This document shows positions 1,752-47,411 of a stretch of 64,000 bases of DNA, in pieces. This stretch comes from a virus. Its lineage: Duplodnaviria; Heunggongvirae; Uroviricota; Caudoviricetes; Crassvirales. Made by a program: the position numbers and the translations under genes. The stretch's first letter is position 1; every line of letters begins with the position of its first letter. The stretch spans positions 20,379 to 84,378 of IMG/VR virus record IMGVR_UViG_3300037280_000040, one strand, 5' to 3'. The notes beneath the pieces are model-generated. The model was not told the origin of the DNA. It did no database searches and saw nothing but the letters and a program-made list of their open reading frames with translations.

Positions 1752-1978
1752 TTTAACTTACCTTTACAAAATTTCCAAACTATTTCAGCATTTTCTTCAG
1801 TATCAGACATATGTTCATCTAAGAAGTCTTTTCCTTCTTTAAGACCAATATTTTTATAGTAATCTTTAGGATTTCTACTAAGTTCTACCATTCCTTTTAG
1901 AACTGTTAATTTATTACCTTTTCTTATATTTTCAATAAAAAAGATAATAAATTCATCTTTACTCAATTTCTTTTCCAT
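1748..1978 (-). CDS. Hypothetical small protein
   Basis: ORF in an operon-like array. Confidence 0.3.
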   Translation of the reverse strand: MEKKLSKDEFIIFFIENIRKGNKLTVLKGMVELSRNPKDYYKNIGLKEGKDFLDEHMSDTEENAEIVWKFCKGKLK

Positions 1979-2558
1979 CTTTATAGTATAATAATGTTGG
2001 ATTATTCTTATGTATATCTACTGGGAATTCTTCAAAAGTTGTAAACTCTTTAATATTAAAAGGTCTAGTAATTAAATGCCAACCATTTAATGTAGGAATT
2101 TTACCTAATACATTTACTTCAAAACCTGATTGACACTTATTAATACTGTCAGTATAAACATTTATCACATCCTCATTAAAGAAATCTAAATCAACTATCC
2201 ACAGTTTATCACCAGTAGTATATTGACCACATACACTATCAAAAGCTGATTTAACTGACCAAAACTGGTCATTAAGTATCTTATCAGTTACTTCCTTTAG
2301 CATATAAAAAGCTAACTTTTTATAGTTTCTTCTATTTAAGCCAATATAAGCTCTAGCATTAAAGAACTTACATAACTTTTTAATCTCGTCCTGAATAGAA
2401 TCATAGTACTCTAAAGTACTTATATAATAAGTTTTAATAATCCTATTATTATTATTCTCATCAGGATTTTCTTTTCTCCTTCTTATAATTTGTAGAAAGT
2501 AGAAATCACCTTCTTTAAATTTAAGAAATTGCTTAATTAATTCAAAATTATCAATCAT
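1959..2558 (-). CDS. Hypothetical protein (199 aa)
   Basis: ORF. No motif recognised. Confidence 0.4.
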   Translation of the reverse strand: MIDNFELIKQFLKFKEGDFYFLQIIRRRKENPDENNNNRIIKTYYISTLEYYDSIQDEIKKLCKFFNARAYIGLNRRNYKKLAFYMLKEVTDKILNDQFWSVKSAFDSVCGQYTTGDKLWIVDLDFFNEDVINVYTDSINKCQSGFEVNVLGKIPTLNGWHLITRPFNIKEFTTFEEFPVDIHKNNPTLLYYKDGKEIE

Positions 2559-3364
2559 AATATTTCTTCTTTAATAAGTATTTCTTTTACTTTAATAATT
2601 AAATCTTCAATAGTACCATTATTTTCAATTACATAATCAAACTTATAATCATCTAAAGCAGTTTCAGATTCATGTTCTATAGCTAAAGATTTTATTGCAG
2701 CATCAAATATATTAGGTCTATTAACTCTAATAGTTATACCATTTCTATCTTTAATAGCTTTAGCTTCATTAGGAAATCTACAATCAGTTATAATCCAATT
2801 AGGATAACCATTATTATATCTTTCAGGATTAGATAAAATTGTCATTTCAATTTGTCCTCCAAAACCAATATTTCCAGTAGGTTTTACTTTATATTCATAT
2901 CCTTCATTAGGAGTATAATCCCCCATAGTAGCATTAACCCAAATATCAGGATGAATTATTTGTCTACCACATTGAGTACCTATTAATTGTAATAACTTTC
3001 TAGGTGTTAAAGGAACTTGTTTACATTCACAAAATGAACAATTTTCTTTATCTAAATTTTTACATACATATTCTTTGGGTTGATTCCATTCCTCACCTAA
3101 TTCAGTCTCTTTAAATTTTTGGTTTTCAAGTTGTTCTCTTGTACATCCTATTAAAAGACATACAATATCTTTTAATTTATCTGCAAACTTTTTAATTTCA
3201 ACTCCTGATACCTTACTTAAGTCTACAGTAGCTAATTCTTCTATAAATACATCAGGTGGATAATATCTTCCTCTAACTTCTTTAGTCATATAAAGATGAT
3301 ATTGAATTATTTTACCTACTAAGTCTTTTCCCGACCCTATCTTACCACTAACCCCTATTAACAT
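2555..3364 (-). CDS. P-loop NTPase, putative (deoxy)nucleotide kinase. It has an inserted Cys cluster, CSFCEC.
   Basis: The N-terminal Walker A, MLIGVSGKIGSGKD, resembles phage dNMP kinases. It sits between thyX and the DNA polymerase. Confidence 0.5.
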   Translation of the reverse strand: MLIGVSGKIGSGKDLVGKIIQYHLYMTKEVRGRYYPPDVFIEELATVDLSKVSGVEIKKFADKLKDIVCLLIGCTREQLENQKFKETELGEEWNQPKEYVCKNLDKENCSFCECKQVPLTPRKLLQLIGTQCGRQIIHPDIWVNATMGDYTPNEGYEYKVKPTGNIGFGGQIEMTILSNPERYNNGYPNWIITDCRFPNEAKAIKDRNGITIRVNRPNIFDAAIKSLAIEHESETALDDYKFDYVIENNGTIEDLIIKVKEILIKEEIL

Positions 3365-3725
3365 TCTTTTCCTCCTTTTCTTTATCTTTTAAAGTGATAT
3401 AATTATCTAAAAGGTATTTAGTTTTAATAGCTATTTGTCTGTACTCTAAATCATTATCTTTATCATCTAAAGCTATTAATAATATAGCTGGATAAGCATG
3501 TTTATCTTCATCATTATAAATCCAACAATTTTTAATAGCTTTAAATCTAAACCCTGATTTTTTATTAATAAATATCCTTTCTTTATCTACAGTAGTTTGC
3601 ATTTTACAAAGTAAATATATACCAAATAGAAATATAATACTAACAATACCTAATACAAGTATCAATTTTAATATATGTGGGTCCATTATTTTAAAATTTA
3701 AAAGTGGCACTATTACTAATGCCAC
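3348..3725 (-). CDS. Small membrane protein
   Basis: Hydrophobic stretch ILKLILVLGIVSIIFLFGIYLL. Confidence 0.35.
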   Translation of the reverse strand: MALVIVPLLNFKIMDPHILKLILVLGIVSIIFLFGIYLLCKMQTTVDKERIFINKKSGFRFKAIKNCWIYNDEDKHAYPAILLIALDDKDNDLEYRQIAIKTKYLLDNYITLKDKEKEEKNVNRG

Positions 3726-3883: not shown

Positions 3884-4129
3884 TTAATGAATCCAATATT
3901 TAGCTGTTTCAGGTACTGCAACTAATTTAACTGATTTACAGAATATAGCAGCTGCTTCATCCATAGCTTTTTTTAAATTTGCTGCTACTTCATCTACTAT
4001 TTCATCAGGAGATTCAACTAAGTACTCATCATGTACATCATTAGGAATCCAAACTGTAAACAATAGATTATTTCTAAGTAAATAATTAAAGAATCTAATA
4101 CCTGCTATTTTTGTAACTATAGCTGCTGT
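3884..4129 (-). CDS. DNA polymerase I family (PolA), 3' exon. It carries motif C and the C-terminus.
   Basis: Manual translation of the minus strand gives TAAIVTKIAGIRFFNYLLRNNLLFTVWIPNDVHDEYLVESPDEIVDEVAANLKKAMDEAAAIFCKSVKLVAVPETAKYWIH*. VHDE is PolA motif C. It joins in frame to ...NAPVQG of exon 1. Confidence 0.7.
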   Translation of the reverse strand, partial: TAAIVTKIAGIRFFNYLLRNNLLFTVWIPNDVHDEYLVESPDEIVDEVAANLKKAMDEAAAIFCKSVKLVAVPETAKYWIH

Positions 4130-4918
4130 CAGCTTTGTTATCTTATAGGCTCTTTATCCTATAATTCAATACCTTTAACTTTCGGTATTGCTCGGACTAT
4201 ATCTTAAAATATTATTACAAAAATTTATAAGTTCTTGTGTGGTAGCAGAATTTTTCATAGAGTTAGCTTTCTTACTGATAATCATAATGTTATTTTTAGT
4301 GTAACCAATACTATTATCTATCCTATCTAGAGATGGACTATACTCGTAGTTCCCCTTACTGCCTTTAACTAAAGGAACAAGTAATATAGGACAAATATCA
4401 GGAATAATTATATCTTCTACTGTTAAAGTAAATTCCATATTTTTTCTTTCTGCCCTCTTTTTAGCTGCATTTAGCATACCTACTTTATAAGGAATATCCT
4501 TTTTTAAAGAATTTCTCTTTAAAAGATTAGTTCTTTCCTTAAAACTAGTATCATATAACCTTCTAAATTGTCTCATAGACATATCTTCTGGTTTAGATTC
4601 TATACAATCTATGCAAGCCCACTCTCTTTTATACTCTCCCTTATAAGCAATTCTAAAAGAATCTAGGGGAAGTAATCTTCCACATTTTTTACAAATTTTT
4701 GTTTCCATACATATAGTTATTTATTACTTACACAAAGGTAAGTAATAATTTTGATATATGCAAATATTTTACCCCTTTTCTTGGTGTTTTACCTTCCCAT
4801 AGGGAATCCATACACTAGTCTCTACACCTTCTACTTATTACTAAGTAGCTTGGCTCGGTATTCCCATCTCAGGGTTCACCGAATTTAAGGGTTTTAAATA
4901 GGGCACAACTTTATGTCC
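4130..4918 (-). mobile_element. Group I intron interrupting the PolA gene, with an HNH endonuclease ORF in the P8 position
   Basis: On the minus-strand RNA there is an R-like element, GGUGUAGAGACUA (plus 4816-4828), and an S element, AAGAUAUAGUCC (plus 4194-4205). Exon 1 ends in U and the intron ends in G. A homologous core with compensatory stem changes is present in the RNR intron. Confidence 0.7.
4175..4708 (-). CDS. HNH homing endonuclease encoded inside the PolA intron
   Basis: The N-terminal CKKCG...CIDC zinc ribbon and SLDRIDNSIGYTKNNIMIISKKANSMKN resemble the second HNH ORF at 9137-9805. Confidence 0.6.
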   Translation of the reverse strand: METKICKKCGRLLPLDSFRIAYKGEYKREWACIDCIESKPEDMSMRQFRRLYDTSFKERTNLLKRNSLKKDIPYKVGMLNAAKKRAERKNMEFTLTVEDIIIPDICPILLVPLVKGSKGNYEYSPSLDRIDNSIGYTKNNIMIISKKANSMKNSATTQELINFCNNILRYSPSNTES

Positions 4919-6724
4919 ACCCTGTACAGGTGCATTTAAAGCATTTCTCTCATAACCACTTTTAGTCTGAAAGAATTTACTTACATCTAACATCATTTGA
5001 GGTCTATCATCTCTATTACTTCCATTAGCTATCCATTGCTGTTTAACTACTCTATACTCTGACCAAAACTCATAATCCATTGATTTTTCAATCGCTTTTA
5101 ATTCTTTCCAATCATGTATAAACATTTTATGACCAGTTATAGAATTAATAAGAATATAACCTTTATCCCACATATCTTTCTTTACTCTTTTAAAGTAAAC
5201 TTCTATATTAGGTAACCCAGTTAAATAAGATTTTTCAATAGCATTACCTTGTTCTAAAGGTAAAGATAAATTTCTTGCAATAGTTGAACCATTTCCTCCA
5301 TAATGTATTGAAAATTTAGCTTTTTTTGCTAATGTTCTTAAATCAGGTCTTTTAGGTTTCACTTCTTCTTCAGATAAAATATCTAAATCTTTAGGAAAGC
5401 AAATTTTAGCAACAAAACTATGTCCATCTCTTTTTCTAGTATCATTGTAAAATTCAATAAGTTTTTGTTCCTGAGATAACTCAGCAAATATAAAATCTTC
5501 TTGAGCAGTATAATCACAATCAATTAAAGTATAGCCACTTTGAGCTACAAAACTATGTCTTGTCTCATCATTATTAGGTAGATTTTGTAGGTTAAGATGC
5601 TCTATATTATTAGTTTTATCTTTACCACCACAACTTAATCTACCAGTGTCCATCATCTGATTAAAATTAGTATGAATTCTACCACTAATAGGATTTATTT
5701 GGTCTATAACACCTTGTCCATAAGTACTTACTACCTTATCAAAACCTTTATAATCTAAATAAGGTTGGGTAATAGTTGATACATCTTTCTGTAAACTAAT
5801 TACTTTAGCTTCAACAGATTTTTTCATCAATCCAGTTTTCTTATCTTTAGTAAGTAATTTAAATCCTAAAATTTCAAACAACTTAACTACTTGAGGAGAA
5901 CTAGCCCAATTAATATTACATACAGGTTCAGCATTAAAACCTTCAAATAAATCACCTTGTAAATCAGTTTCTGTAAATTTTAATAATCTTGAATCAGTTT
6001 TACTATTATCTACTACCCATTTATTAAGTACTATTCTAGAATCTTCTAATTTCTTAGAATCATTAGCCATTTTAGACTTCCACTTCTCAATATCTAACTT
6101 AATGCCACTATACTCAATATAAGCAAGTACTTTAACAAATTCATTTTCAACTCTAGCAGCTGAATGTAAGTCTTTTTCTGTTAGAGCTAACTCTTGAGCA
6201 TCTTTGATTTGACTAAGATATTTTACATCATTACAACCATATTCTATAACTTCTTCTGTTAAAGCTCTTTTAATATTACCTCTTTCTGATTTATCAAGAT
6301 AAATGTTTAGATAATTACCAGCACAGCCTTGTAAACCCATGCTTCTTTTACCTGGAGGATAACCCATATAGAGTAATTTCTCTACTACAAAAGTATCATA
6401 AACATTCCTTATAACAATTCTTTTATGATACAAGAATTGTAAATCAAATTTAGCATTATGTAATATAAATAGCTTAGAAGAATCTTCTAATAATGGCTTT
6501 AATAATTCAATATTGATAGTATAATCTATAGCAAATTGATTCTCAAAATCTCCCAACTGAAGTAATAATAATGCTTTTGTATAAACATCTAATCCTTCAG
6601 TTTCAGTATCAAGACCTATGATAGGTTTATCAGCAAAATAATCTAAACAAAATTGTAAATTACATACTGATACTCTATCATAGGTATTGAATAGTTGAAC
6701 ATTATTAGTTATAAAATACTTCAT
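4919..6724 (-). CDS. DNA polymerase I family (PolA), 5' exon. It carries the 3'-5' exonuclease domain and polymerase motifs A and B.
   Basis: Exo I is DTETEGLD. Motif A-like is LIDCDYTAQEDFIFAELS. Motif B is RTLAKKAKFSIHYGG. The conserved ERNALNAPVQG lies just before the splice point. The 24 codons that follow it are intron read-through. Confidence 0.75.
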
Positions 6725-8013: not shown

Positions 8014-9153
8014 TTATGTTAATGATTGATGAATAAAGAAACATTTAGAGTAAGTACATTCAGAGCACTTAACACAACCTGCTTCATGAACTAGTGGTTT
8101 ACCACAATCAGGACAAACTTCTCCTTTAACTTCTTCTTTAGGAATATATTTACCTAATACTCTACACATTGCTGAACTAAATGAAGTAATATTATCATTT
8201 ATTTTTCTAGTAGTATCTATAATAAAAGATATTGCAGCCCCATGTCTTAATAACATAGAAGTATAAATAGTACAAGCTTTTTCTTCAATCTTATCATTAG
8301 CTAATTGTAAATTAGGATAAACATAAAATTCAGAATTAAACTGATATTGTCCTTTTTTAACTTTAGTAATAGTACCAATAGTATTCTTAGCTAATTTTTC
8401 TCCTAATGAATCTTTCTTTAATTCATAAGCAAATATCTCAAAAGGTTTGCCATCTAATAATCCTACTATAACTGCATAACTAATACCTTGAGATTTAACT
8501 ACATACATTTCAGCAGGTAATGTTTTAGGTCTTTTGGGAGCAGAATTTTCTTTAATTGTACCTAATTTTTCTTCAGTAGTAATGTTATTTAATATACCAT
8601 CTCTACAACCATCTCTATAAATAGTAATACCTTTAAGATTTTTATTCCAAGCCATCATAAATATCTGAGAAATAGTCTCTTCTTTTACATCCTTAGGTAA
8701 ATTAATAGTAGAACTAATAGAATGAGTAGTATATTTTTGAACTATTGATTGTAATTCAATTCTATCCTCCCAATCAATACTAGCTGAATCAGAGTTGTAC
8801 CAAGGAGATTTTTTAAAATAATCTTCTAACTCAAATGTTTTTATTCCTTCACAACCATCATCATATTTAAGTTGAATCCATTGTTTAAATGGTTCATGTA
8901 AAACATAGAATTTAGTAAATTTCTCTCCAGTAATATCAGTAAAATCAACTCTATCATTCTCAGACATACATTTCTTACTTCTCTCATAATAAGGAGCAAA
9001 TATAGGTTCAATACCTGAAGATACTTGTGCCATAATACTTACAGTACCAGTTGGTGCTACAGTAGAAAAAGAAACATTCCTCCTCCCATACTTTTGCATT
9101 TTCTCATATTGTTGTGGAAAATTTTCTTTTATAAATTTATACCAAGCATTCAT
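8014..9153 (-). CDS. Ribonucleotide reductase large subunit, C-terminal fragment, translated as a separate ORF
   Basis: RRNVSFSTVAPTGTVSIMAQVSSGIEP matches the RNR alpha LRNSLLIAPMPTASTSQI...ESIEP region. It ends in a Cys cluster, CPDCG...CVKCSEC. Confidence 0.7.
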   Translation of the reverse strand: MNAWYKFIKENFPQQYEKMQKYGRRNVSFSTVAPTGTVSIMAQVSSGIEPIFAPYYERSKKCMSENDRVDFTDITGEKFTKFYVLHEPFKQWIQLKYDDGCEGIKTFELEDYFKKSPWYNSDSASIDWEDRIELQSIVQKYTTHSISSTINLPKDVKEETISQIFMMAWNKNLKGITIYRDGCRDGILNNITTEEKLGTIKENSAPKRPKTLPAEMYVVKSQGISYAVIVGLLDGKPFEIFAYELKKDSLGEKLAKNTIGTITKVKKGQYQFNSEFYVYPNLQLANDKIEEKACTIYTSMLLRHGAAISFIIDTTRKINDNITSFSSAMCRVLGKYIPKEEVKGEVCPDCGKPLVHEAGCVKCSECTYSKCFFIHQSLT

Positions 9154-9805
9154 ATTTTTTTCTTTTTTGATTTAATGCAATTTTGGTGCACATATTTATA
9201 AAATGTTCTTGAGTATATACATTTTTCATTATATTAATATCCCTATGTACCCATTGTACATTTCCTTCAATATAACCCTTTGTAGAATCTATTCTATCCA
9301 AAGAAGCATCAAAAGCTCCAAAATCTAGATTACCACTATAGACATTTTTTTTATTAATAAGTACTCCTGGTTCAAATAGTTTTATATCTATACCAGATAA
9401 ATTACATTTTTTATTTTGTTTAATAAATAATTCCCATAAATATTCTATAGATATATTAAATTCATGACCTCTTGACTTGGCTGCATTTTTATAATGCCAA
9501 TATAAAGATCTTGGTAAATCCCCTATTCCTTGATGTTTAGGAGAATATCCAACTGAACATATTCTGCCATTTAATTTATTATTTTTCCATTTTTCTCTAT
9601 TAGAACATTTTCTACATCTCGTAGACTTTTCTGATTTTAAAGTATCTCCTCTAATTAATTTTTCAGCTCCACATTTAATACATTGTACTTTTATAAATCC
9701 TCTATGTATATTATTAGTTTTATTCTTAACATTATATACAGTTGAATCAATTACTTTATAAATACCATATATTTCATCTTCTTTAAAATTATATTGTCTT
9801 GGCAT
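9137..9805 (-). CDS. HNH homing endonuclease inserted between two RNR fragments
   Basis: It has a zinc ribbon, CIKCG...CRKCS, and SLDRIDSTKGYIEGNVQWVHRDINIMKN. Its start overlaps the upstream RNR fragment stop as TAATG. Its end overlaps the downstream fragment start by 17 nt. Confidence 0.6.
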   Translation of the reverse strand: MPRQYNFKEDEIYGIYKVIDSTVYNVKNKTNNIHRGFIKVQCIKCGAEKLIRGDTLKSEKSTRCRKCSNREKWKNNKLNGRICSVGYSPKHQGIGDLPRSLYWHYKNAAKSRGHEFNISIEYLWELFIKQNKKCNLSGIDIKLFEPGVLINKKNVYSGNLDFGAFDASLDRIDSTKGYIEGNVQWVHRDINIMKNVYTQEHFINMCTKIALNQKRKKYECLV

Positions 9806-10677
9806 TATAATACTTTTTCTAATTCTGCATCATAACCATCAAATGTACCTCTTATTATAGCTAAATCAATAGTAGAATCTAATTCTCCCATCATTTTAGT
9901 ATAAAGAATTAAATCAGTATATTCTAAAGACTCTTCACTACCATATCTTATACCTAACATAGCAAATACATCTGCTAATCCAGTAAATCCTACTCCAGCT
10001 CTTCTACCTTTTTTAGCAGTTTCTTGGATTTTAATCCATAAATCTAATTCTAATATATCAGGTTCTTCTGCTCTACTAATATGGTCTATAATTCTATCAA
10101 TTGCTTCAACTTCTAAATCAATTAAATCATCTGCTAATCTCATTGTTTTATAAGCTACTTCATATAACTTATCTGTCTCAAATTGAGCAGAATCTGTATA
10201 AGGATTAGATACAAAACTAGCTAAATTAATATGAATTAATCTACAAGAATCATAAGGTTGCATAAAGATTTCACCACAAGGATTTGTTGTAACTCCTCTG
10301 TATTGAGGATATACTCCATCAGGACTATAATCATGATGATTATCTTCAAACATAATTCCTGGCTCAGCAGTATTCCAAGCACAATGTACTAGAGAATTCC
10401 ATAATTCTTTTGCTTTTACTTTCTTAAACCATAATGGATTTAAACTATTTTGAGCTGAATATAACTCATTATAATTAAAATCTCCTATAATCATATTAGC
10501 TCCTGCATTAATAGGAAACTGTTGTATAAAATCTTTATTTTTATCTACTGATTCCATAAATTCAGTAGTAAGCTTTACTGATATATTAGCACCAGTAATC
10601 TTATCTAAATTCTGTTTAGAAGTAATAAAATCTCCACTATCAGGATGTACTATACTAATAGTTTCCATTAATGCCCC
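9805..10677 (-). CDS. Ribonucleotide reductase large subunit, middle exon with the active site
   Basis: The NPCGEI active-site motif and RRAGVGFTGLADVFAMLGIRYGSEESLEY match RNR alpha. It joins in frame to exon 1 as GGRR|GALMETISIVHPD. Confidence 0.7.
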   Translation of the reverse strand, partial: GALMETISIVHPDSGDFITSKQNLDKITGANISVKLTTEFMESVDKNKDFIQQFPINAGANMIIGDFNYNELYSAQNSLNPLWFKKVKAKELWNSLVHCAWNTAEPGIMFEDNHHDYSPDGVYPQYRGVTTNPCGEIFMQPYDSCRLIHINLASFVSNPYTDSAQFETDKLYEVAYKTMRLADDLIDLEVEAIDRIIDHISRAEEPDILELDLWIKIQETAKKGRRAGVGFTGLADVFAMLGIRYGSEESLEYTDLILYTKMMGELDSTIDLAIIRGTFDGYDAELEKVL

Positions 10678-11657
10678 CTATTTGGACTATATCACACCTT
10701 AATTTAATAATTAAGGCTTGGGTTCTAATTCTGGTTATTAAGGGAAACCAATTTCCCTCCAGTAGTCTCTACACCTTCTATAGAATGGTCTATAGCTCGG
10801 CTCGGTATTGCATTATCACTAATGGTTTCACCGAATTCTCCCAATTCAAGACGCAGGGCATTGAATTTATCAAATTTTCTCTTTAATGGTATAAAATCTC
10901 TATCTTGGTATAACCAATCATAGAATTTTAATACATCTTTTTTATTAGAGAATTCTAATACAAAACAATCAGATTTTGTCTTAGGTTTAATAGAAGTAGA
11001 TATCCCTATTTTATATAGTATTTTTTGAGTAGCTAATAAAAGACCATAAGAAGAAGTAAAAGACACTTTTTGCCATATTCTTCCTCTATCTATTCTTTTG
11101 CCCCAAGTTATACAACCATCAGCATCAAATAAACCTTGTATCATATACTTTTCTAAACTATTTTTTAAAATAGGAAGATTTCTTTCTTTTTTAAGAGTAT
11201 TTCCTAAAAATTTAGATAATCCATTTATCTTTCTAGTAATACTAACATCAGGGAATTTTTTAGTAATTTCATTTCTAGTTAAATCTTCAAATGTATTACA
11301 TCCTAATATATTACCTAAAAAATCAATCAATTCTTTATCCCTATGTTGTAGTACTAATTGTACCATATCATTATTTATATAACTATCAGCAGCTATAAAT
11401 CCAATAAGATAAGCCCATTCTTTTGTTTCTATTTTATCTAAAATTAAAGTTGGATTTTTTTTATGAATCATTAAATTAGTTAATTCATACTTTTTAATCC
11501 AATATCTTAAAGATAAAGGTAATAACCCTAAATCTCTTTCTATTTGTCTTACACTTTTTCCCTCTAATAGGAAATTTGATAATTGTTCTTTTGTAATATT
11601 ACATACTCTATTCATTTTCTGTATATATTTAATTAAAATTTAATTAAGAACTTGTTT
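10678..11657 (-). mobile_element. Group I intron in the RNR gene, carrying a LAGLIDADG endonuclease ORF
   Basis: The R-like element is at plus 10762-10774 and the S-like element, GUGAUAUAGUCC, at plus 10684-10695. The core is homologous to the PolA intron, and the variable hairpin shows compensatory changes (ctatag/ctatag here, ctactta/taagtag there). Exon 1 ends ...cgU and the intron ends ...AAAUAG. Confidence 0.7.
10725..11615 (-). CDS. LAGLIDADG homing endonuclease, double-motif, encoded inside the intron
   Basis: The two motifs are LIGFIAADS and GLFDADGCI. Confidence 0.7.
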   Translation of the reverse strand: MNRVCNITKEQLSNFLLEGKSVRQIERDLGLLPLSLRYWIKKYELTNLMIHKKNPTLILDKIETKEWAYLIGFIAADSYINNDMVQLVLQHRDKELIDFLGNILGCNTFEDLTRNEITKKFPDVSITRKINGLSKFLGNTLKKERNLPILKNSLEKYMIQGLFDADGCITWGKRIDRGRIWQKVSFTSSYGLLLATQKILYKIGISTSIKPKTKSDCFVLEFSNKKDVLKFYDWLYQDRDFIPLKRKFDKFNALRLELGEFGETISDNAIPSRAIDHSIEGVETTGGKLVSLNNQN

Positions 11658-12224
11658 ACGTCTACCTCCCTGAGCCACTTCTCTAGTGATTTCAGAGTCT
11701 ACTTCCATAAAAGAAACAGGTCCTGTAGAAGTCTTTGCAGCATTGTTTACAAAAGCTCCATTAGGTCTAAGTAAAGATAAATCTTTACCTACTCCTCCAC
11801 GTCTCTTCATAAGTTGAGCTTGCTCAGTTCTTTTAAGCATAATGCCACCATAAGAATCACTAGGTTGTCCAATTACAAAACAATTAGATAATGAACCTAT
11901 TTGAGTAGTATTACCTAACATACTCATTACTGAACCACCTGGAATGACATATTTAAAATTCTTAAATAATCTATAAATATCAGAATATATATCAGCAGAA
12001 GTAGCTTTTAATAAATCTACTTGTAGCTTTTTTCCATAATCTGATAAAGAATTAACATCATAAGATTTATCTGATTGTTTATAATTCCATTCAATCCTAG
12101 TAAACTCTTTTGCCATTCTTTTGTGCATATCATCAGGAGTTATTTCTCCTTCAATAGCATACTTACTTTTCCAAGCTTGTGTAGCTAATTCATCTCCATT
12201 AAAATACTTAAGTATTTCTTTCAT
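11658..12224 (-). CDS. Ribonucleotide reductase large subunit, 5' exon. No ATP cone is present.
   Basis: GSLSNCFV is the first catalytic Cys motif and VAQGGRR follows it. The ORF tail KQVLN* is intron read-through. Confidence 0.7.
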
Positions 12225-19662: not shown

Positions 19663-20427
19663 TTATTTACGAATAGAAGCTTCAAATTCTCTTAATTCAG
19701 CATCTGAGTAAGAAGAAGTTAATTCTTCTACTTTAGCTACTACTTTATCTTCAGACTCAGTAACTGCATGGTCATCAATACTGGCAATATCTGTTACTAA
19801 AGTATCATACTCATCATCAGCAATAACTTCAGCACCAAAGAGTAAACCTACTATTGCAGTCAATACACTTTTTACAGTAGCTTTAGAAGCTTTTACTTCT
19901 TTAGAAGCAGCTGGTTTTTTAGCTTCTTTTTTAACTACAGGAACAATTTCTTCCACTTTAACTACTGGAGTAGCAGGATTTTTCTTACTAGCTTTAGATG
20001 CAGTAGTACTTACTCCTTGTTTAGAGTTTTTATGTCCATCAACAAATTTTAGCAAATCTTCAGTTTTTACCTGAGTATAGTTTTTACCATCAAATTTTAG
20101 TTTAATAGCATCACCTAATTTGTTTTCTTTGATATAATCAAAGGCATCAGTTCTATCAGAACCTGATTTGATTTTTTTGTTTTTGAGAGTAAGCATAATT
20201 ACTAACTCATTGGTGGTTTCACCTTTATAAGGAAGATTTGTAGGTAATACAGAGCTGTCATCCAATAATTCTACCTTAGCAATTGCTACATAGAATGTCA
20301 TATCATCAAAGTTAATATTGTTTTCAATTAAATTTCCTTTTAATTGACCCAATGTTTCAGCATTACTTACAAAAGTGATTTTACCTTGACCTGCTGCTTT
20401 AATTACCGTAATTTTTCTTGGTTCCAT
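19663..20427 (-). CDS. Hypothetical protein with a Lys/Ala-rich region and a compact N-terminal domain of about 90 aa
   Basis: KKEAKKPAASKEVKASKATVKS is histone H1-like low complexity. The N-terminal domain ends ...KIKSG. Confidence 0.4.
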   Translation of the reverse strand: MEPRKITVIKAAGQGKITFVSNAETLGQLKGNLIENNINFDDMTFYVAIAKVELLDDSSVLPTNLPYKGETTNELVIMLTLKNKKIKSGSDRTDAFDYIKENKLGDAIKLKFDGKNYTQVKTEDLLKFVDGHKNSKQGVSTTASKASKKNPATPVVKVEEIVPVVKKEAKKPAASKEVKASKATVKSVLTAIVGLLFGAEVIADDEYDTLVTDIASIDDHAVTESEDKVVAKVEELTSSYSDAELREFEASIRK

Positions 20428-34149: not shown

Positions 34150-34938
34150 TTACAGTTTAATATTGGTTGATATTTCAAATTTAATTCCCATAGCTTGAGC
34201 ATCTGCATAAATACTATCAGCCATATGTTCAAATCCTGTTACAGGACTCATACAGTCAGTTAAGATTATAAATTTCTTAGCTAACTCAGGAAATTGCATG
34301 GCTTGTTTAAGAGTATTAGCCACACAATGAGATTGTGCTTCTCCTGCAAAGTAAATAACATCAAATGTTTCCAGCTTTTGTAACAAAGCTTGATTCAATT
34401 GAGTCTCAGGATGTCCTGCTACTGGAATATTTGCTCTGAATGCACCAAAGTGTTCAGTTAAGGGATAAGTTCCTTTTGCTACTACTTGATAGAAAGATTT
34501 TGTTTCTCTAGCCCAAGCTGTAACAGCATCCATAATAGGCTCAACAAAAGAAGCTCCTTTAGTTCCAATAACACAATGCTCAGCCCAAATACAATGAGGG
34601 AATTCTCCTTGTTTCTCAAGTTCCTCAATATACTTAGTAGCTTCATTAGGCACAAATCTTGGACTCCATTTACCATCTAACACATCTTGATATGTTATGA
34701 TTGTAAAAATAGGTGGGAAATTACCATCTTTATCTGTCCAAAATCCTGGGTGAGCAATATCTAATACTTGGTGACTGTCCATAGTCATACCAATGTAATT
34801 AATGCTGTTTTTATTTTTAGTAATAAATTCAGCTAGTCTCAACATGTCTTTATCTGCATTATCTACAAATAATGATCCTTTTGGGTCACAAAAGTCAAAT
34901 TGAGCATCTATAATTAAAAGAGCTATTTTTTTATACAT
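34150..34938 (-). CDS. Isochorismatase-family cysteine hydrolase, nicotinamidase (PncA)-like
   Basis: IALLIIDAQFDFCDPKGSLFV matches PncA ALLLVDLQNDFC..G.L.V. A candidate catalytic Cys lies in FAGEAQSHCV. Confidence 0.55.
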   Translation of the reverse strand: MYKKIALLIIDAQFDFCDPKGSLFVDNADKDMLRLAEFITKNKNSINYIGMTMDSHQVLDIAHPGFWTDKDGNFPPIFTIITYQDVLDGKWSPRFVPNEATKYIEELEKQGEFPHCIWAEHCVIGTKGASFVEPIMDAVTAWARETKSFYQVVAKGTYPLTEHFGAFRANIPVAGHPETQLNQALLQKLETFDVIYFAGEAQSHCVANTLKQAMQFPELAKKFIILTDCMSPVTGFEHMADSIYADAQAMGIKFEISTNIKL

Positions 34939-38585: not shown

Positions 38586-38625
38586 AATGTTCTTAAGTAC
38601 TAAGATTAATAATTTATTTAATTGT

Positions 38626-38698
38626 GATTCAGAAGGGATTCAAACCCTTGACCCCTACCTTAGAAGGGTAGTGCTCTATTCAGCTGAGCTACTGAACC
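38626..38698 (-). tRNA. tRNA-Arg (anticodon UCU)
   Basis: Manual fold: acceptor GGUUCAG/CUGAAUC, D stem GCUC/GAGC, anticodon stem CUACC/GGUAG with loop CUUCUAA, T arm AAGGG-UUUGAAU-CCCUU. Confidence 0.7.
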
Positions 38699-44123: not shown

Positions 44124-44194
44124 AGTTTCCTAGTGTAATGGTAGCACAAGAGTCTTTGGTCCTCTTAGTTAAAGTTCAAATCTTTAGGAGACTA
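44124..44194 (+). tRNA. tRNA-Gln (anticodon UUG)
   Basis: Manual fold: acceptor AGUUUCC/GGAGACU, D stem GUG/CAC, anticodon loop CUUUGGU, T arm UAAAG-UUCAAAU-CUUUA. Confidence 0.55.
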
Positions 44195-44203
44195 CAATAA
44201 TAT

Positions 44204-44275
44204 GCCTTTATAGTGTAATGAATAGCACACGATTCTTCTAAGATTATAGTATAGGTTTGAATCCTATTAGGGGTA
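44204..44275 (+). tRNA. tRNA-like, probably tRNA-Arg (UCU), with a weak anticodon stem
   Basis: Acceptor GCCUUUA/UAGGGGU is wobble-rich. The T arm is AUAGG-UUUGAAU-CCUAU. The anticodon loop is CUUCUAA, but only 4 of 5 stem pairs form. Confidence 0.4.
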
Positions 44276-44290
44276 CAATAATTAATAAAT

Positions 44291-44557
44291 ATGATACAAA
44301 GAGTTCCTGTATTGAGAGAATGTTCTTATAAAGAATATAATGATAACATAGATAAACATCCTGATGAATATCTTAGATTATTTGTAGTTGATAGTAATAC
44401 TGAAAGTACTGAGGATATTACAAAAGAGGTTGATGATAATATTGATGCAATAGGTAATACTGATAAGAATAAGTTTTACAAAGTATTAGGATTAGTTAGT
44501 TCTCAAGAGTTAGAAAAAGATATACAACAAACACAACAAAGTAGTTTGTTGAATTAA
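44291..44557 (+). CDS. Hypothetical acidic protein
   Basis: ORF. Confidence 0.35.
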   Translation: MIQRVPVLRECSYKEYNDNIDKHPDEYLRLFVVDSNTESTEDITKEVDDNIDAIGNTDKNKFYKVLGLVSSQELEKDIQQTQQSSLLN

Positions 44558-44718
44558 ATCATAAATGTTTTTAATAAAGTTGATTTAGCTATACTTAGTC
44601 TGTGAAGATAGAGATAGCACAAAAATATAGATATAGTTCAGTTGCTAGAATGCTTGGTTTGGGACCAAGAGGTCAAGAGTTGGAGTCTCTTTATCTATAC
44701 AATTTATTTTAGAATTAA

Positions 44719-44932
44719 AATGGAAGAAGAAAAGAAAACATTAGAACCTTATCAACTAAGAGTTATTGATGAGTTTAAAGATATTGATTTTAAAGTAAGA
44801 AAGATAGAGAAATTTATATTAACTGATGTATATAAAAATTTATCTAAATCAGAACAAAGTATGATAGACTTACAGGTTATGTATATGACTGGTTATTATA
44901 AAGTTTTAATGGAAAGAATAAATAGATTTTAA
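44719..44932 (+). CDS. Hypothetical small protein. The start was moved to the internal MEEEKKT.
   Basis: ORF. The upstream part of the listed ORF is unlikely to be coding. Confidence 0.35.
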
Positions 44933-44935
44933 TAA

Positions 44936-45009
44936 GGGGTCTTAGCTCAATTGGCTAGAGCGATTGCTTTGCAAGCAATAGGTAGTGGGTTCAATCCCCA
45001 CAGATTCCA
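44936..45009 (+). tRNA. tRNA-Ala (anticodon UGC)
   Basis: Acceptor GGGGUCU/AGAUUCC with G3:U70. D stem GCUC/GAGC. Anticodon stem AUUGC/GCAAU with loop UUUGCAA. T arm GUGGG-UUCAAUC-CCCAC. Confidence 0.75.
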
Positions 45010-45014
45010 CATAT

Positions 45015-45088
45015 GTTCTAATAGCTCAATTGGTTAGAGCTTTTGACTGTTAATCAAAGGGTTGTAGGTTCAAGTCCTACTTAGAACG
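45015..45088 (+). tRNA. tRNA-Asn (anticodon GUU)
   Basis: Acceptor GUUCUAA/UUAGAAC. Anticodon stem UUUGA/UCAAA with loop CUGUUAA. T arm GUAGG-UUCAAGU-CCUAC. Confidence 0.75.
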
Positions 45089-45111
45089 CAGTATTAATTT
45101 AATTAAAAACA

Positions 45112-45414
45112 ATGGCACAAATTGAAGTAATGTTAGAGATTATAGATGATGTAATTCCTTTATATCCTGATTTAGTATCAAAAGATTATAAAGAAACTAT
45201 CATATATGATTATAAAAATTTATTAGATACTAAAGAATCTCTATATAAATATAGAGAAATAGTAAGAGAATTAGAAGTAGCTTTAAAAGAAAGAGAATAT
45301 AAATTTAATAAACAATCTCAATTTTTTAATATTGTTTATAAGACTGAAATTAAACAAGGAGTTGATAAACCTGAATATGCTGATACTATGCATGTAAAGG
45401 GAAAAGTATATTAA
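45112..45414 (+). CDS. Hypothetical protein
   Basis: ORF. Confidence 0.4.
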   Translation: MAQIEVMLEIIDDVIPLYPDLVSKDYKETIIYDYKNLLDTKESLYKYREIVRELEVALKEREYKFNKQSQFFNIVYKTEIKQGVDKPEYADTMHVKGKVY

Positions 45415-45415
45415 T

Positions 45416-45643
45416 ATGACTTGGGAAGAAGCTTACTTAGAGATGGAGAAAGGTAATATTATTACCACTCCTAATAGTCCTAATTATTGTTTACTATATG
45501 CTCCTAATCATATATTAGTATTTTGTGAACCTGATAGATTATATCATATTAGTAGTAATAAAAGAATTAAAGAAGTTACTGATTATATAGTTGATAATAC
45601 TAAGAGAGATATTATTAATAATTTAGTAATAAAACTAAAATAG
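45416..45643 (+). CDS. Hypothetical small protein
   Basis: ORF 2 nt after the previous stop. Confidence 0.35.
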   Translation: MTWEEAYLEMEKGNIITTPNSPNYCLLYAPNHILVFCEPDRLYHISSNKRIKEVTDYIVDNTKRDIINNLVIKLK

Positions 45644-45677
45644 TTTATTTTTATCTTCCTACTCAATTTTAAAGCGT

Positions 45678-45938
45678 ATGAATAGATACTTTATAGTTAA
45701 TCCAAATCTTTATATATCTAAAGATAAATACATAGTAAGACTAACTGAATACAATATTGATACTCATATCTTTAAAGGAACTAAGATTAGTTGGATTACA
45801 AATGATGAGGATGGTAAAATAGAAGATATTAGAATAGAAGATATTGAATTGGATGATAATAAATTATCAATATTTAAAGAAATAAATAAAAGAATTTTTT
45901 ATAAGATATTATTAGTACTATTAAAGAATTCTTATTAA
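45678..45938 (+). CDS. Hypothetical small protein
   Basis: ORF. Confidence 0.35.
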   Translation: MNRYFIVNPNLYISKDKYIVRLTEYNIDTHIFKGTKISWITNDEDGKIEDIRIEDIELDDNKLSIFKEINKRIFYKILLVLLKNSY

Positions 45939-45956
45939 CCTTAAAAACTTAATAAA

Positions 45957-46397
45957 ATGGACAATTTTGATTTAGATTTAAGTCTAAGACCTAAGGGTGG
46001 TAGTGGTAATACTAGTGGTACTAGTACTTTTAAAGATTTTATATGTAAACTTGAAAGTTATAAAACTAAATTTAAGAATTTACATTGGGGAGCTATGAAT
46101 GATACTTTACATTTAAGAGTAGACCAATTCTTAGATGAGTTAACTGACTTCCAAGATGAATTATCTGAGACAGGGCAAGGTATTATAGGATTCCAATTTG
46201 GACCTAATGATATAGTTACTACTCACTTAAATTATACTGACCCAATAGTAGCTTTAACTACTCTTAAAGATAAAACATTAGCATTTCATAAAAGTATTAA
46301 TTCTAATCCTGAATTAATTGGTTTAGTAAATTCTGTAGAAGGATTTATGACTATAGTAGGAAAATTCTTATATTTATTTAGAATAGCTGCTAAGTAA
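45957..46397 (+). CDS. Hypothetical protein (146 aa)
   Basis: ORF. Confidence 0.4.
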   Translation: MDNFDLDLSLRPKGGSGNTSGTSTFKDFICKLESYKTKFKNLHWGAMNDTLHLRVDQFLDELTDFQDELSETGQGIIGFQFGPNDIVTTHLNYTDPIVALTTLKDKTLAFHKSINSNPELIGLVNSVEGFMTIVGKFLYLFRIAAK

Positions 46398-46406
46398 TTA
46401 GTCTAA

Positions 46407-46479
46407 GGACCAGTAGCTCAGTTGGTAGAGCACCTGACTCATAATCAGTAAGTCCCAAGTTCAATCCTTGGATGGTCCA
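46407..46479 (+). tRNA. tRNA with a CAU anticodon, Met or Ile2-lysidine type
   Basis: Acceptor GGACCAG/AUGGUCC with a G7·A66 mismatch. D stem GCUC/GAGC. Anticodon loop CUCAUAA. T arm CCAAG-UUCAAUC-CUUGG. Confidence 0.55.
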
Positions 46480-46480
46480 C

Positions 46481-46553
46481 TGTGTGGAAAGCTCTTATGG
46501 TGAGAGTGCCAAATTGTGGATTTGGAGGGAGGGTTCGAGTCCCTACTACACCC
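46481..46553 (+). tRNA. tRNA-like, probably tRNA-His (GUG). The acceptor/D-stem junction is irregular.
   Basis: Clean anticodon arm CCAAA-UUGUGGA-UUUGG. T loop UUCGAGU. Discriminator C, as in tRNA-His. Three A residues separate the acceptor and D stems. Confidence 0.4.
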
Positions 46554-46558
46554 TTAAT

Positions 46559-46631
46559 GGAAATATGGCAGACATGATGTATGCACTAGTTTGAAGCACT
46601 AGCTAAGGGAGTTTGAGTCTCTCTGTTTCCA
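46559..46631 (+). tRNA. tRNA-Phe (anticodon GAA)
   Basis: Acceptor GGAAAUA/UGUUUCC. Anticodon stem CUAGU/ACUAG with loop UUGAAGC. T arm GGGAG-UUUGAGU-CUCUC. Confidence 0.55.
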
Positions 46632-46692
46632 CAATATTAGTTAATACTTAAAACTTTAACAATAATAATTAGGTCATGTAGTTTATTTTACT

Positions 46693-46700
46693 TACCTTTG
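46693..46700 (+). promoter_or_regulatory. Promoter -7 box TAccTTTG inside TTTTACTTACCTTTGT, upstream of gene 46724
   Basis: Motif family match. Confidence 0.45.
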
Positions 46701-46723
46701 TATCAACAAATAAAAAATAAAGT

Positions 46724-47092
46724 ATGAGTGTAGTTTTATTAAATAGTTTGAATGCTGATAGAGATTTTATTTTAAATCTTAATGGTATTTTTAATAATGG
46801 AAAAATTATAGATAAAAAATTATTTTTTCATTCTGAAATTTATATATATTCTAATTCTACAGTAGAAGGAGTAGTAATGTATGTACCTACTAATGAGGTT
46901 TTTCTTAGAATTAAAGTAACTTATCCTACCCAAAATATTGCTAATAAGAGTGCATGGATTATGACTAGTAACTTAGAAGAAGAATTATTAAGACAAATAT
47001 TATTTGCTAAAGAAACTAATAATACTATAACTGATACTAAAGGTAATATTATTAAAACATTTGCTGATTATAAAAAAGAAATAATGCCTTGA
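46724..47092 (+). CDS. Hypothetical protein
   Basis: ORF behind the promoter motif. Confidence 0.4.
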   Translation: MSVVLLNSLNADRDFILNLNGIFNNGKIIDKKLFFHSEIYIYSNSTVEGVVMYVPTNEVFLRIKVTYPTQNIANKSAWIMTSNLEEELLRQILFAKETNNTITDTKGNIIKTFADYKKEIMP

Positions 47093-47171
47093 TGGTGGAA
47101 TTGGTAGACACGCAGGACTTAAAATCCTGTGAGCAGTAATGCTCGTATGGGTTCAAGTCCCATTCAAGGTA
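47086..47171 (+). tRNA. tRNA-Leu (anticodon UAA), type II with a long variable arm
   Basis: Acceptor GCCUUGA/UCAAGGU. Anticodon stem CAGGA/UCCUG with loop CUUAAAA. Variable-arm hairpin GAGC-AGUAAU-GCUC. T arm AUGGG-UUCAAGU-CCCAU. Confidence 0.75.
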
Positions 47172-47254
47172 CAATTATTTAGTTTCTAACAAAGTGGATG
47201 GAAGTTAGAATTAAGTGGAGACATGTAATATTCCAACTAAATAATTTTTAAAAT

Positions 47255-47326
47255 GCCAAATAAACTTTGATGATGAAGCCCACTCTTGTAAAGTGGTTTA
47301 ACTAGGTTTGAGTCCTAGATTTGGCT
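47255..47326 (+). tRNA. tRNA-Thr (anticodon UGU) with an atypical D arm
   Basis: Perfect acceptor GCCAAAU/AUUUGGC. Anticodon stem CCACU/AGUGG with loop CUUGUAA. T arm CUAGG-UUUGAGU-CCUAG. The D stem pairs poorly. Confidence 0.5.
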
Positions 47327-47337
47327 CAAAAAAAAAT

Positions 47338-47411
47338 AGCGGGTTAGAGCAGTCAGGTAGCTCAACAGACTCATAATCTGTAGGTCACTGGTTCAAATCC
47401 AGTACCCGCCA
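47338..47411 (+). tRNA. Second CAU-anticodon tRNA, with an A1·C72 mismatch
   Basis: Acceptor AGCGGGU/ACCCGCC. D stem GAGC/GCUC. Anticodon stem ACAGA/UCUGU with loop CUCAUAA. T arm ACUGG-UUCAAAU-CCAGU. Confidence 0.6.

Follow-up and report, generated by a model that had tools for sequence, protein, structure and literature searches.

Group I introns have long been known from the ribonucleotide reductase (RNR) genes of phages, among them T4 nrdB and nrdD/sunY, SPbeta bnrdE/F and Twort nrdE. Here we describe an element of this kind in a crAss-like phage, a member of a group that ranks among the most abundant human gut viruses. It is an insert in the RNR gene on a 64-kb stretch of DNA (64,000 nucleotides; positions 20,379 to 84,378 of IMG/VR record IMGVR_UViG_3300037280_000040), called the window below, whose numbering we use throughout; the RNR exons, the insert and the endonuclease open reading frame (ORF) within it all lie on the minus strand. 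Judged from its sequence, the insert is very probably a mobile group I intron, self-splicing and subgroup-IA-like in architecture, that carries a LAGLIDADG homing endonuclease and interrupts a class II-type RNR gene.

In phages and bacteria alike, group I introns and inteins classically target RNR genes (PMC2248736, PMC3653736, PMC3045599), and the nrdE and nrdF genes of the Bacillus cereus group carry group I introns (PMC2248736). For crAss-like phages, the passages on introns in Yutin et al. 2021 report group I introns at high density in some groups, located in core genes, associated with LAGLIDADG and other endonucleases and detected via endonuclease protein domains; the hosts named in those passages are MCP, PolB, primase, ATP_43b and TerL, and RNR is mentioned there as a conserved gene only (PMC7886860). 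The present locus adds one more to the selfish elements long known to target RNR genes. It is an ordinary selfish element for a phage RNR gene and no surprise to a specialist, and its family is already recognizable in databases at the protein level and widespread in crAss-like phages. Our analysis supplies base-level splice sites, a guide sequence and a covariation-supported fold for this widespread intron family.

Results

The insert runs from 11657 to 10678, is exactly 980 nt long, begins with AAACAAG and ends with AAAUAG. Upstream of it, RNR exon 1 (11658..12224, within the ORF 11640..12224) comprises 189 codons and ends in ...EVAQGGRR; its frame continues five codons into the insert (...GGRRKQVLN) before meeting a UAA stop at 11642-11640. 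Exon 2 (9805..10677) starts with GALMETISIVHPD at 10677, and appears in the ORF list as 9805..10668, beginning at an ATG four codons past the junction (METIS...). Removing the insert restores ...EVAQGGRR followed directly by GALMETISIVHPD, or, in nucleotides, ...GGTAGACGT joined to GGGGCATTA..., and leaves the conserved RNR reading frame uninterrupted. The final base of exon 1 is U (11658) and the final base of the intron is G (10678). The boundaries and length given in the initial annotation, its frame break after VAQGGRR with the point of resumption, and its reading of the terminal bases were thus all borne out, and the predicted excision is precise, in frame and situated within the invariant RNR motif GRRGALM.

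The conceptually spliced protein behaves as a single enzyme. Exon 1 covers positions 1-76 and exon 2 positions 78-341 of the Pfam profile for the RNR barrel (Ribonuc_red_lgC). The best match in the PDB is the B12-dependent RNR NrdJ of T. maritima (1xje, E 3.5e-51), with which exon 1 aligns up to the junction and the complete protein aligns unbroken across it (QGGR.RGALM versus QGSRRRGALM). Because class I enzymes match much more weakly (~1e-23), the host protein is, by sequence similarity, closest to class II RNR of the B12-dependent NrdJ type and not to class I NrdA. To the collinearity with E. coli NrdA that had been noted for this gene, this adds a correction of the class. A scan of viral contigs returned 64 related loci, and in about 35 of them RNR is one uninterrupted ORF that reads AQxGRRGALM at the point of the junction.

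Between the body of the endonuclease ORF and exon 2, approximately 185 nt (10678-10862) hold a group I core consisting of P3-P8 plus P7.1/P7.2. P3 pairs UUGGG (10844-10840) with CCCAA (10722-10718), as indicated by covariation and by the Rfam alignment. P4 (UUCGGU 10835-10830 with ACCGAG 10806-10801) encloses P5 (CAUUA 10824-10820 with UAAUG 10815-10811), both helices being recovered by covariation and in the minimum-free-energy fold; the P6 hairpin (CUAUAG 10795-10790 with CUAUAG 10783-10778) is likewise supported by covariation. J6/7 together with the 5' strand of P7 reads AAGGUGUAGAGACUA (10763..10777) and is invariant in 23 introns. Both strands of P7 itself, GACUA (10767-10763) and UAGUC (10689-10685), are invariant as well. 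The P8 hairpin, GCCUUAAUU auua AAUUAAGGU (10717-10709 with 10704-10696), again shows covariation. The R-like and S-like elements that had been named as the strands of P7 could be located at 10775-10763 (GGUGUAGAGACUA) and 10696-10685 (GUGAUAUAGUCC), respectively, the P7 3' strand UAGUC (10685..10689) sitting inside the S element GAUAUAGUCC.

Two further helices, P7.1 (CUGG/CCAG) and P7.2 (GGGAAA/UUUCCC), form an insertion between P7 and the P3 3' strand (10731..10762). Such extra helices in this position are reportedly the criterion of Michel and Westhof for subgroup IA, and by that criterion the predicted architecture is subgroup-IA-like. P2 is absent, and so is P9: after the P7 3' strand only AAAUAG remains, so that the terminal G (omega-G, 10678) is separated from the C after P7 by AAAUA alone. 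A pseudoknot-free minimum-free-energy fold of 10678-10862 (z = -2.8) recovers P4, P5, P6, P7, P7.1, P7.2 and P8.

The group I assignment rests on covariation and on homology to an intron that Rfam recognizes, not on a direct Rfam match. By megablast, 10731-10817 matches part of Flavobacterium phage vB_FspM_immuto at ~91% identity, and by local blastn the core is 92.5% identical to it over 80 nt spanning P4'-P6-P7-P7.1/7.2. The immuto stretch is an ORF-less group I intron scoring 76.9 bits (E 7e-20) against Rfam Intron_gpI. It lies in a tail-gene region of a cultured phage (vB_FspM_immuto_2-6A, MW353175.1, ~144975-145230), in a record that carries no intron annotation and in which a "hypothetical protein" CDS, immuto26A_226, is called inside the intron; the hypothetical CDSs on either side, 225 and 227, are possibly two exons of one gene.

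To follow the core through relatives, we used the conserved 16-mer of J6/7-P7, which retrieved more than 120 viral loci. Alignment A1, made with MAFFT, holds 23 introns that share the P7.1/7.2 layout, and alignment A4 six introns from the same RNR site (the window, L058, L186, L189, L191 and L192); as a control, the 3' partners were slid by 1-3 columns. Standard pairs fill 82.9% of cells in A1 versus 29-44% in the slid controls, none of 500 shuffles reaches the observed values, and 37 of 46 pairs have changed on both sides. Among the same-site introns, 94.9% of cells are paired versus 30-46% when slid, with 21 compensatory pairs. The covariation-supported core of the initial annotation, drawn there from a second intron in the same DNA, thus holds in the six same-site introns and in the 23 wider homologues.

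Individual helices conform to this picture. In the 23 introns, P3 is paired in 96% of cells with all five pairs changed on both sides, and P6 in 97.8% with five of six pairs compensatory. P4 is paired in 91% of cells in the wider set and in 100% of the same-site set, where three of its pairs are compensatory; P5 reaches 88% with four compensatory pairs in the same-site introns. P8 is paired in ~90% of cells with 4-6 compensatory pairs, the 90% in the wider set applying to its outer part, and P7.1 in 83-100%, also with compensatory changes. P7.2 is paired in 84% of cells among same-site introns; in the wider MAFFT alignment, with its differing loop lengths, the figure is 45%. The conserved core P3-P8, including the P3/P7 pseudoknot, is therefore kept by covariation, P7 itself being invariant and so neutral in this respect. 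A covariance model built from A1 (R1) gives same-site relatives outside its seed 114-130 bits. A further R1 match in the window, at 34804-34844, falls inside an ordinary ORF and was dismissed as chance.

Directly ahead of P3, at a distance of 4 nt from it and some 800 nt away from the 5' splice site, stands the internal guide sequence, UGCCCUGCGUCU (10860-10849). It was recognized by eye with the help of the Rfam core alignment and then tested against shuffles. Its GCGUCU part (10849..10854) is complementary to AGACGU at the end of exon 1 (11658..11663), which is identical in all same-site relatives; the resulting P1 would place a U.G pair (U11658 with G10854) precisely on the 5' splice site. 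Its UGCCCU part (10855..10860) pairs with GGGGCA at the start of exon 2 (10677-10672), forming P10. The guide as a whole therefore pairs contiguously, 12 of 12, with the ligated junction AGACGU-GGGGCA (10 Watson-Crick and two G.U pairs), a 12-mer that was found anywhere in just 17 of 5000 intron shuffles. Support for P1 comes from complementarity and position, the helix being invariant in the relatives. P10, in contrast, shows two independent compensatory changes: in L058 exon 2 reads GGGGCU (+6 A to U) and the guide AGCCCU (U to A), and in L191 exon 2 reads GGAGCA (+3 G to A) and the guide UGCUCU (C to U).

No acceptable guide pairing was found in the 42-nt leader that precedes the ORF, GUGUCU within the ORF near 11065 was rejected as a guide because it occurs at chance frequency, and a UUCAA/UUGAA hairpin sequestering the guide was dropped since it is not conserved in L058.

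With the guide so far downstream, P1 is predicted to close a ~790-nt loop that holds the endonuclease gene. The statement of the initial annotation that the ORF lies upstream of P7 is true and imprecise: the ORF occupies the P1 loop and then reads on through the guide and P3-P7.2. Its last ~45 codons coincide with the guide and with the core as far as P7.2, residues 252-256 being encoded by the guide and later residues by P3-P7.2, and its UAG stop (10727-10725) stands immediately 5' of the P3 3' strand. The peptide ALRLELGE, which contains the guide-encoded residues, is almost invariant among homologues, a constancy that fits combined constraint on RNA and protein.

The 42-nt leader of the intron (11616..11657) contains the stop of exon 1 and, just ahead of the ORF start, a hairpin made of A and U only (UUAAUUAAA..UUUAAUUAA). 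Similar hairpins and early stops are present in the intron leaders of relatives. In phages the usual arrangement keeps ribosomes that translate the exon out of the ribozyme core, and the conserved early in-frame UAA fits such shielding from exon-1 ribosomes. The hairpin may be an extension of P1 or a translational signal for the endonuclease ORF. It directly follows the 5' splice site, and the in-frame stop of exon 1 falls within it. In L186, L189, L191 and L192 it seems to be kept with different sequences.

The ORF (10725..11615) encodes 296 amino acids. As had been noted from its sequence, it contains two LAGLIDADG motifs, LIGFIAADS and IQGLFDADG, whose acidic residues are conserved in alignments A3 and A5 (D77 is invariant and position 166 is always D or E). 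Its second domain matches Pfam LAGLIDADG_3 (PF14528) at E 1.6e-12, with 47.9 bits against a cutoff of 22.5, and the protein matches phrog_4645, "endonuclease", at E 1.3e-22. An AlphaFold2 model (pLDDT 79 overall, above 90 across most of residues 61-170) comprises an N-terminal three-helix bundle (residues 9-49) with a helix-turn-helix and two alpha-beta-beta-alpha-beta-beta-alpha domains. Block-mean pLDDT is ~84-96 in the LAGLIDADG domains (residues 61-170 and most of 181-250), and residues 263-296, in the predicted disordered tail encoded over the ribozyme core, fall below 50. The best Foldseek matches in the PDB are I-Tsp061I (E 3e-8), PI-SceI, bI3 maturase, I-AniI, I-DmoI and I-OnuI. On this model, the product is a monomeric two-domain LAGLIDADG enzyme.

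We found 396 homologues of the ORF, with an identical protein on at least 31 contigs. A large group of homologues, 300-312 aa long and 51-58% identical, comes from ~100-kb contigs, and one of these, in "uncultured phage cr151_1", already carries the database name "Intron-encoded endonuclease". A tblastn search of an annotated phage collection gave distant matches only, at ~27% identity. Candidate targets for the endonuclease are the intron-less junctions of relatives, for example GGTAGACGT followed by GGGGCTTTA in L139.

The distribution of the element is that of a mobile intron. Intron and ORF occupy the same RNR site in the window, in L058 and in L186-L196, and the intron is absent from ~35 loci (e.g. 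L122-L149). The carriers include syntenic crAss-like contigs with 51-58% identity of the ORF protein, and in every context looked up the homologue stands between the same two pieces of RNR, with PD-(D/E)XK/DUF3799 preceding RNR in a shared gene order. In L186 and L187, the only flanks that reach past RNR, dUTPase comes next. In L058, a phage whose GC content is higher and whose RNR is much more divergent, the same intron stands at the identical codon boundary with a 43%-identical ORF. Presence and absence at one site among relatives is thus combined with occupation of the same site in a distant phage. As for the phage itself, its PolA protein best matches crAss-like phages (cr108_1, cr85_1, Bacteroides phages DAC15 and DAC17, and IAS virus; 42-45% identity), and the best DNA match of RNR is the crAss-like cr106_1. 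Samples that carry the phage include ERZ27248622.

Other selfish elements gather in the same part of RNR. In L182 a different intron of ~1.75 kb (1756-3506) follows the first Arg, 3 nt upstream; it has a local P1 hairpin and encloses two or more ORFs. A LAGLIDADG intein (4803-6001), in frame with the enzyme, interrupts RNR of L184 four codons upstream, after VAQ (Cys1 ... HN, then S). Further relatives are interrupted at about aa 116, 142/143, 323/324, 517, 627 and 657. The segment of RNR around the junction is, on sequence comparison, a hot spot for selfish elements. More R1-related group I cores, at 32-132 bits, occur elsewhere in or near the RNR genes of related phages (L186 5650-5839, L188 4364-4543, L164/L165 9889-10049, L135/L170/L174 and L122 2924-3091), which suggests that these phages carry several paralogous introns.

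The window holds a second group I intron, of 789 nt (4130-4918, minus), in the gene for a family A DNA polymerase (PolA). Its exon 1 ends ...NAPVQG (U at 4919) and its exon 2 starts TAAIVTKIAG at 4129. Rfam gives it 19.9 bits (E 0.014), and R1, whose seed did not include it, 76.8 bits (E 2e-18). The initial annotation had described a core of about 70 nt common to the two introns, and our alignment A2 agrees: 4815-4880 and 10762-10830 match at 51 positions over 66-69 nt, with a score of 27 against -3.1 +/- 3.5 for shuffles and a maximum of 14 in 1000. Both introns share the J6/7-P7 16-mer and the P4 sequences; GATATAGTCC and the 16-mer GAAGGTGTAGAGACTA each occur exactly twice in the 64 kb, once per intron. 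The hairpin for which compensatory changes had been claimed proved to be P6, with the sequences as described (CUAUAG/CUAUAG in the RNR intron, CUACUUA/UAAGUAG in the PolA intron), and P6 of L058 also differs by compensatory changes. By eye, the PolA intron has a local P1 (AGGGU/GCCCU), P10 (GUUGU/ACAGC) and P9/P9.1 hairpins. Its HNH-type ORF (4175-4708; phrog_3322, phrog_1035) lies in P8, where an endonuclease ORF had indeed been placed, and reads through the P7 3' strand. The RNR intron has no local P1, no HNH-type ORF in P8 and no P9/P9.1.

RNR is broken a second time, at 9137-9805 (minus), between the ORFs 9805..10668 and 8014..9153. This break contains an HNH-type ORF (phrog_3322, E 2e-22) whose start overlaps the upstream stop (TAATG) and whose end overlaps the downstream ATG by 17 nt. 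An intron was rejected here, there being neither an Rfam nor an R1 signal and the ORFs overlapping at both ends. At this position RNR is continuous in L196, a near-identical strain (843 of 853 nt of exon 2 identical). The second break looks like a free-standing HNH homing endonuclease gene that splits RNR into two polypeptides, in parallel to nrdA/mobE of Aeromonas phage Aeh1, where RNR is split by a free-standing homing endonuclease (PMC3045599). Elsewhere in the window, Rfam finds a cluster of ten tRNAs (44124-47411, plus) and an isolated tRNA (38625-38698, minus). Possible suppressor tRNAs have been described for crAss-like phages.

Discussion

The anatomy described above would support the canonical two-step, guanosine-initiated pathway. 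In the pre-mRNA, AGACGU of exon 1 would pair with GCGUCU some 800 nt downstream to form P1, presenting the U.G pair at the splice site and looping out the endonuclease gene in L1. Once the core P3-P8 and its P3/P7 pseudoknot had folded, P7 would bind a free guanosine, which would attack after U11658; UGCCCU would then pair with the start of exon 2 as P10, G10678 would enter the G site, and the exons would be ligated into ...GGRR-GALM.... Spread of the intron would depend on the LAGLIDADG endonuclease. The 296-aa enzyme is expected to cut intron-less RNR alleles at the conserved site during co-infection, and repair would copy the intron in (homing). Translation of the complete ORF would unfold the ribozyme. 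Because the last ~45 codons cover the guide sequence and P3-P7.2, splicing and translation of the endonuclease are probably mutually exclusive on any one RNA molecule.

Several observations weigh against a self-splicing group I intron. P1 needs a loop of ~800 nt, and with P2 and P9 missing, only P10 and the terminal G would be left to define the 3' splice site. The Rfam Intron_gpI search that the initial annotation had proposed as a check did not deliver a match: at the gathering threshold the whole window returned tRNAs and no group I intron, and in E-value mode the full element (10500-11800) gave no group I match either, since the ~800-nt ORF separates P1 from the guide. The core alone (10670-10900) scored 24.1 bits (E 2e-4), below the curated 50-bit threshold of RF00028, which is an operational criterion and not a structural definition; this sub-threshold alignment nonetheless places P3, P4, P5, P6, the P7 strands and P8 in the correct order. 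What lowers the score is the displacement of P1, the lack of P2 and P9, and P7.1/P7.2, which appears as a 38-nt insertion relative to the model. P1 and P7, being invariant among the relatives, provide no evidence from covariation. Finally, membership in the covariation sets was decided by a common 16-mer or a common ORF, and it was the window sequence that supplied the structure, so the paired percentages are somewhat inflated, a bias that the slid controls address.

Could the intron have decayed, so that it no longer splices by itself and RNR is either inactivated or dependent on the LAGLIDADG protein or host factors as a maturase? The absent P2 and P9, the very long P1 loop and the sub-threshold Rfam score would suit such a state, and some LAGLIDADG proteins are maturases, with bI3 maturase and I-AniI among the structural matches of this one. 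We nevertheless regard decay as quite unlikely. Across diverged same-site introns the core helices are kept by compensatory changes, P10 varies in step with the exon, the RNR exons on either side are conserved and intact, and the element occurs with an identical ORF in dozens of contigs; covariation in core and P10, intact exons and wide occurrence together point to continuing selection for splicing.

A different possibility, that a free-standing endonuclease gene divides RNR into separately translated polypeptides and that the group I-like sequence is incidental, gains some appeal from the ATG in exon 2 just past the junction and from the HNH gene that truly does split this RNR further downstream. 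The break, however, falls inside the invariant GRRGALM motif, ~185 nt of conserved and co-varying ribozyme structure stand between the ORF body and exon 2, and the guide matches both exon ends, with U closing exon 1 and G closing the intron, which makes this reading extremely improbable. Splicing at the protein level is refuted by the reading frames. Despite the LAGLIDADG intein so close by in L184, the insert of the window is out of frame with the exons, the exon-1 frame stops after five codons, a Pfam search found no Hint domain, and boundary residues of the Cys/Ser...HN type are absent. A mobile self-splicing intron thus remains by far the best account.

A bolder idea builds on the layout of this intron, in which the endonuclease gene is looped out by P1, its final ~45 codons double as the guide (within ALRLELGE) and as the core through P7.2, and P2 and P9 are dispensed with. 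If ribosomes and RNA folding compete, this could constitute a built-in switch between RNR, made by splicing, and endonuclease, used for homing, that would be conserved across a large family of crAss-like introns. We hold this to be doubtful, though conceivable. As a weaker variant, we suggest that the LAGLIDADG protein might double as a maturase and in this way make up for the absent peripheral helices.

The interest of the locus lies in the L1 ORF that overlaps guide and core, in a periphery without P2 and P9, and in the blindness of a default Rfam scan to the intron. For annotation this matters, since automated calls split RNR into fragments and default Rfam misses the intron, so that correct joining of the exons has to be ensured. 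The predicted RNR target of the LAGLIDADG enzyme is of a kind that meganuclease engineering makes use of, and the same-site family offers a ready data set for studies of overlap between ORF and ribozyme.

Compared with known systems, the element resembles the RNR introns of other phages and bacteria in being of the group IA type with P7.1/P7.2, in its insertion into a highly conserved catalytic segment of the gene, in carrying a homing endonuclease gene and in its patchy occurrence among close relatives. Unlike them, it resides in a class II (NrdJ-like) RNR of a crAss-like phage, its endonuclease belongs to the LAGLIDADG type rather than to GIY-YIG or HNH, its ORF occupies the P1 loop and not P6, P8 or P9, and P2 and P9 are absent. 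The intron passages of Yutin et al. 2021 do not extend to RNA structure, splice sites or guide sequence, unlike the anatomy given here (PMC7886860). The immuto intron (L001 3940-4195) differs from the RNR intron in lacking an ORF, in its conventional local P1/P2 and its P9 hairpin, and in its host gene.

For the position of the ORF, a literature search on P1-loop ORFs brought up a sole relevant example, the fungal cox3-i2 of Hypomyces aurantius, a mitochondrial intron, IA1-like, whose P1 loop contains a double-LAGLIDADG gene (PMC4964425). It is organellar rather than phage-borne and shows no sequence evidence of relationship to the RNR intron. Because of this mitochondrial case, the P1-loop location is unusual for phages and not unprecedented: the two introns have in common a double-motif LAGLIDADG coding sequence looped out by P1 of a group IA ribozyme (PMC4964425).

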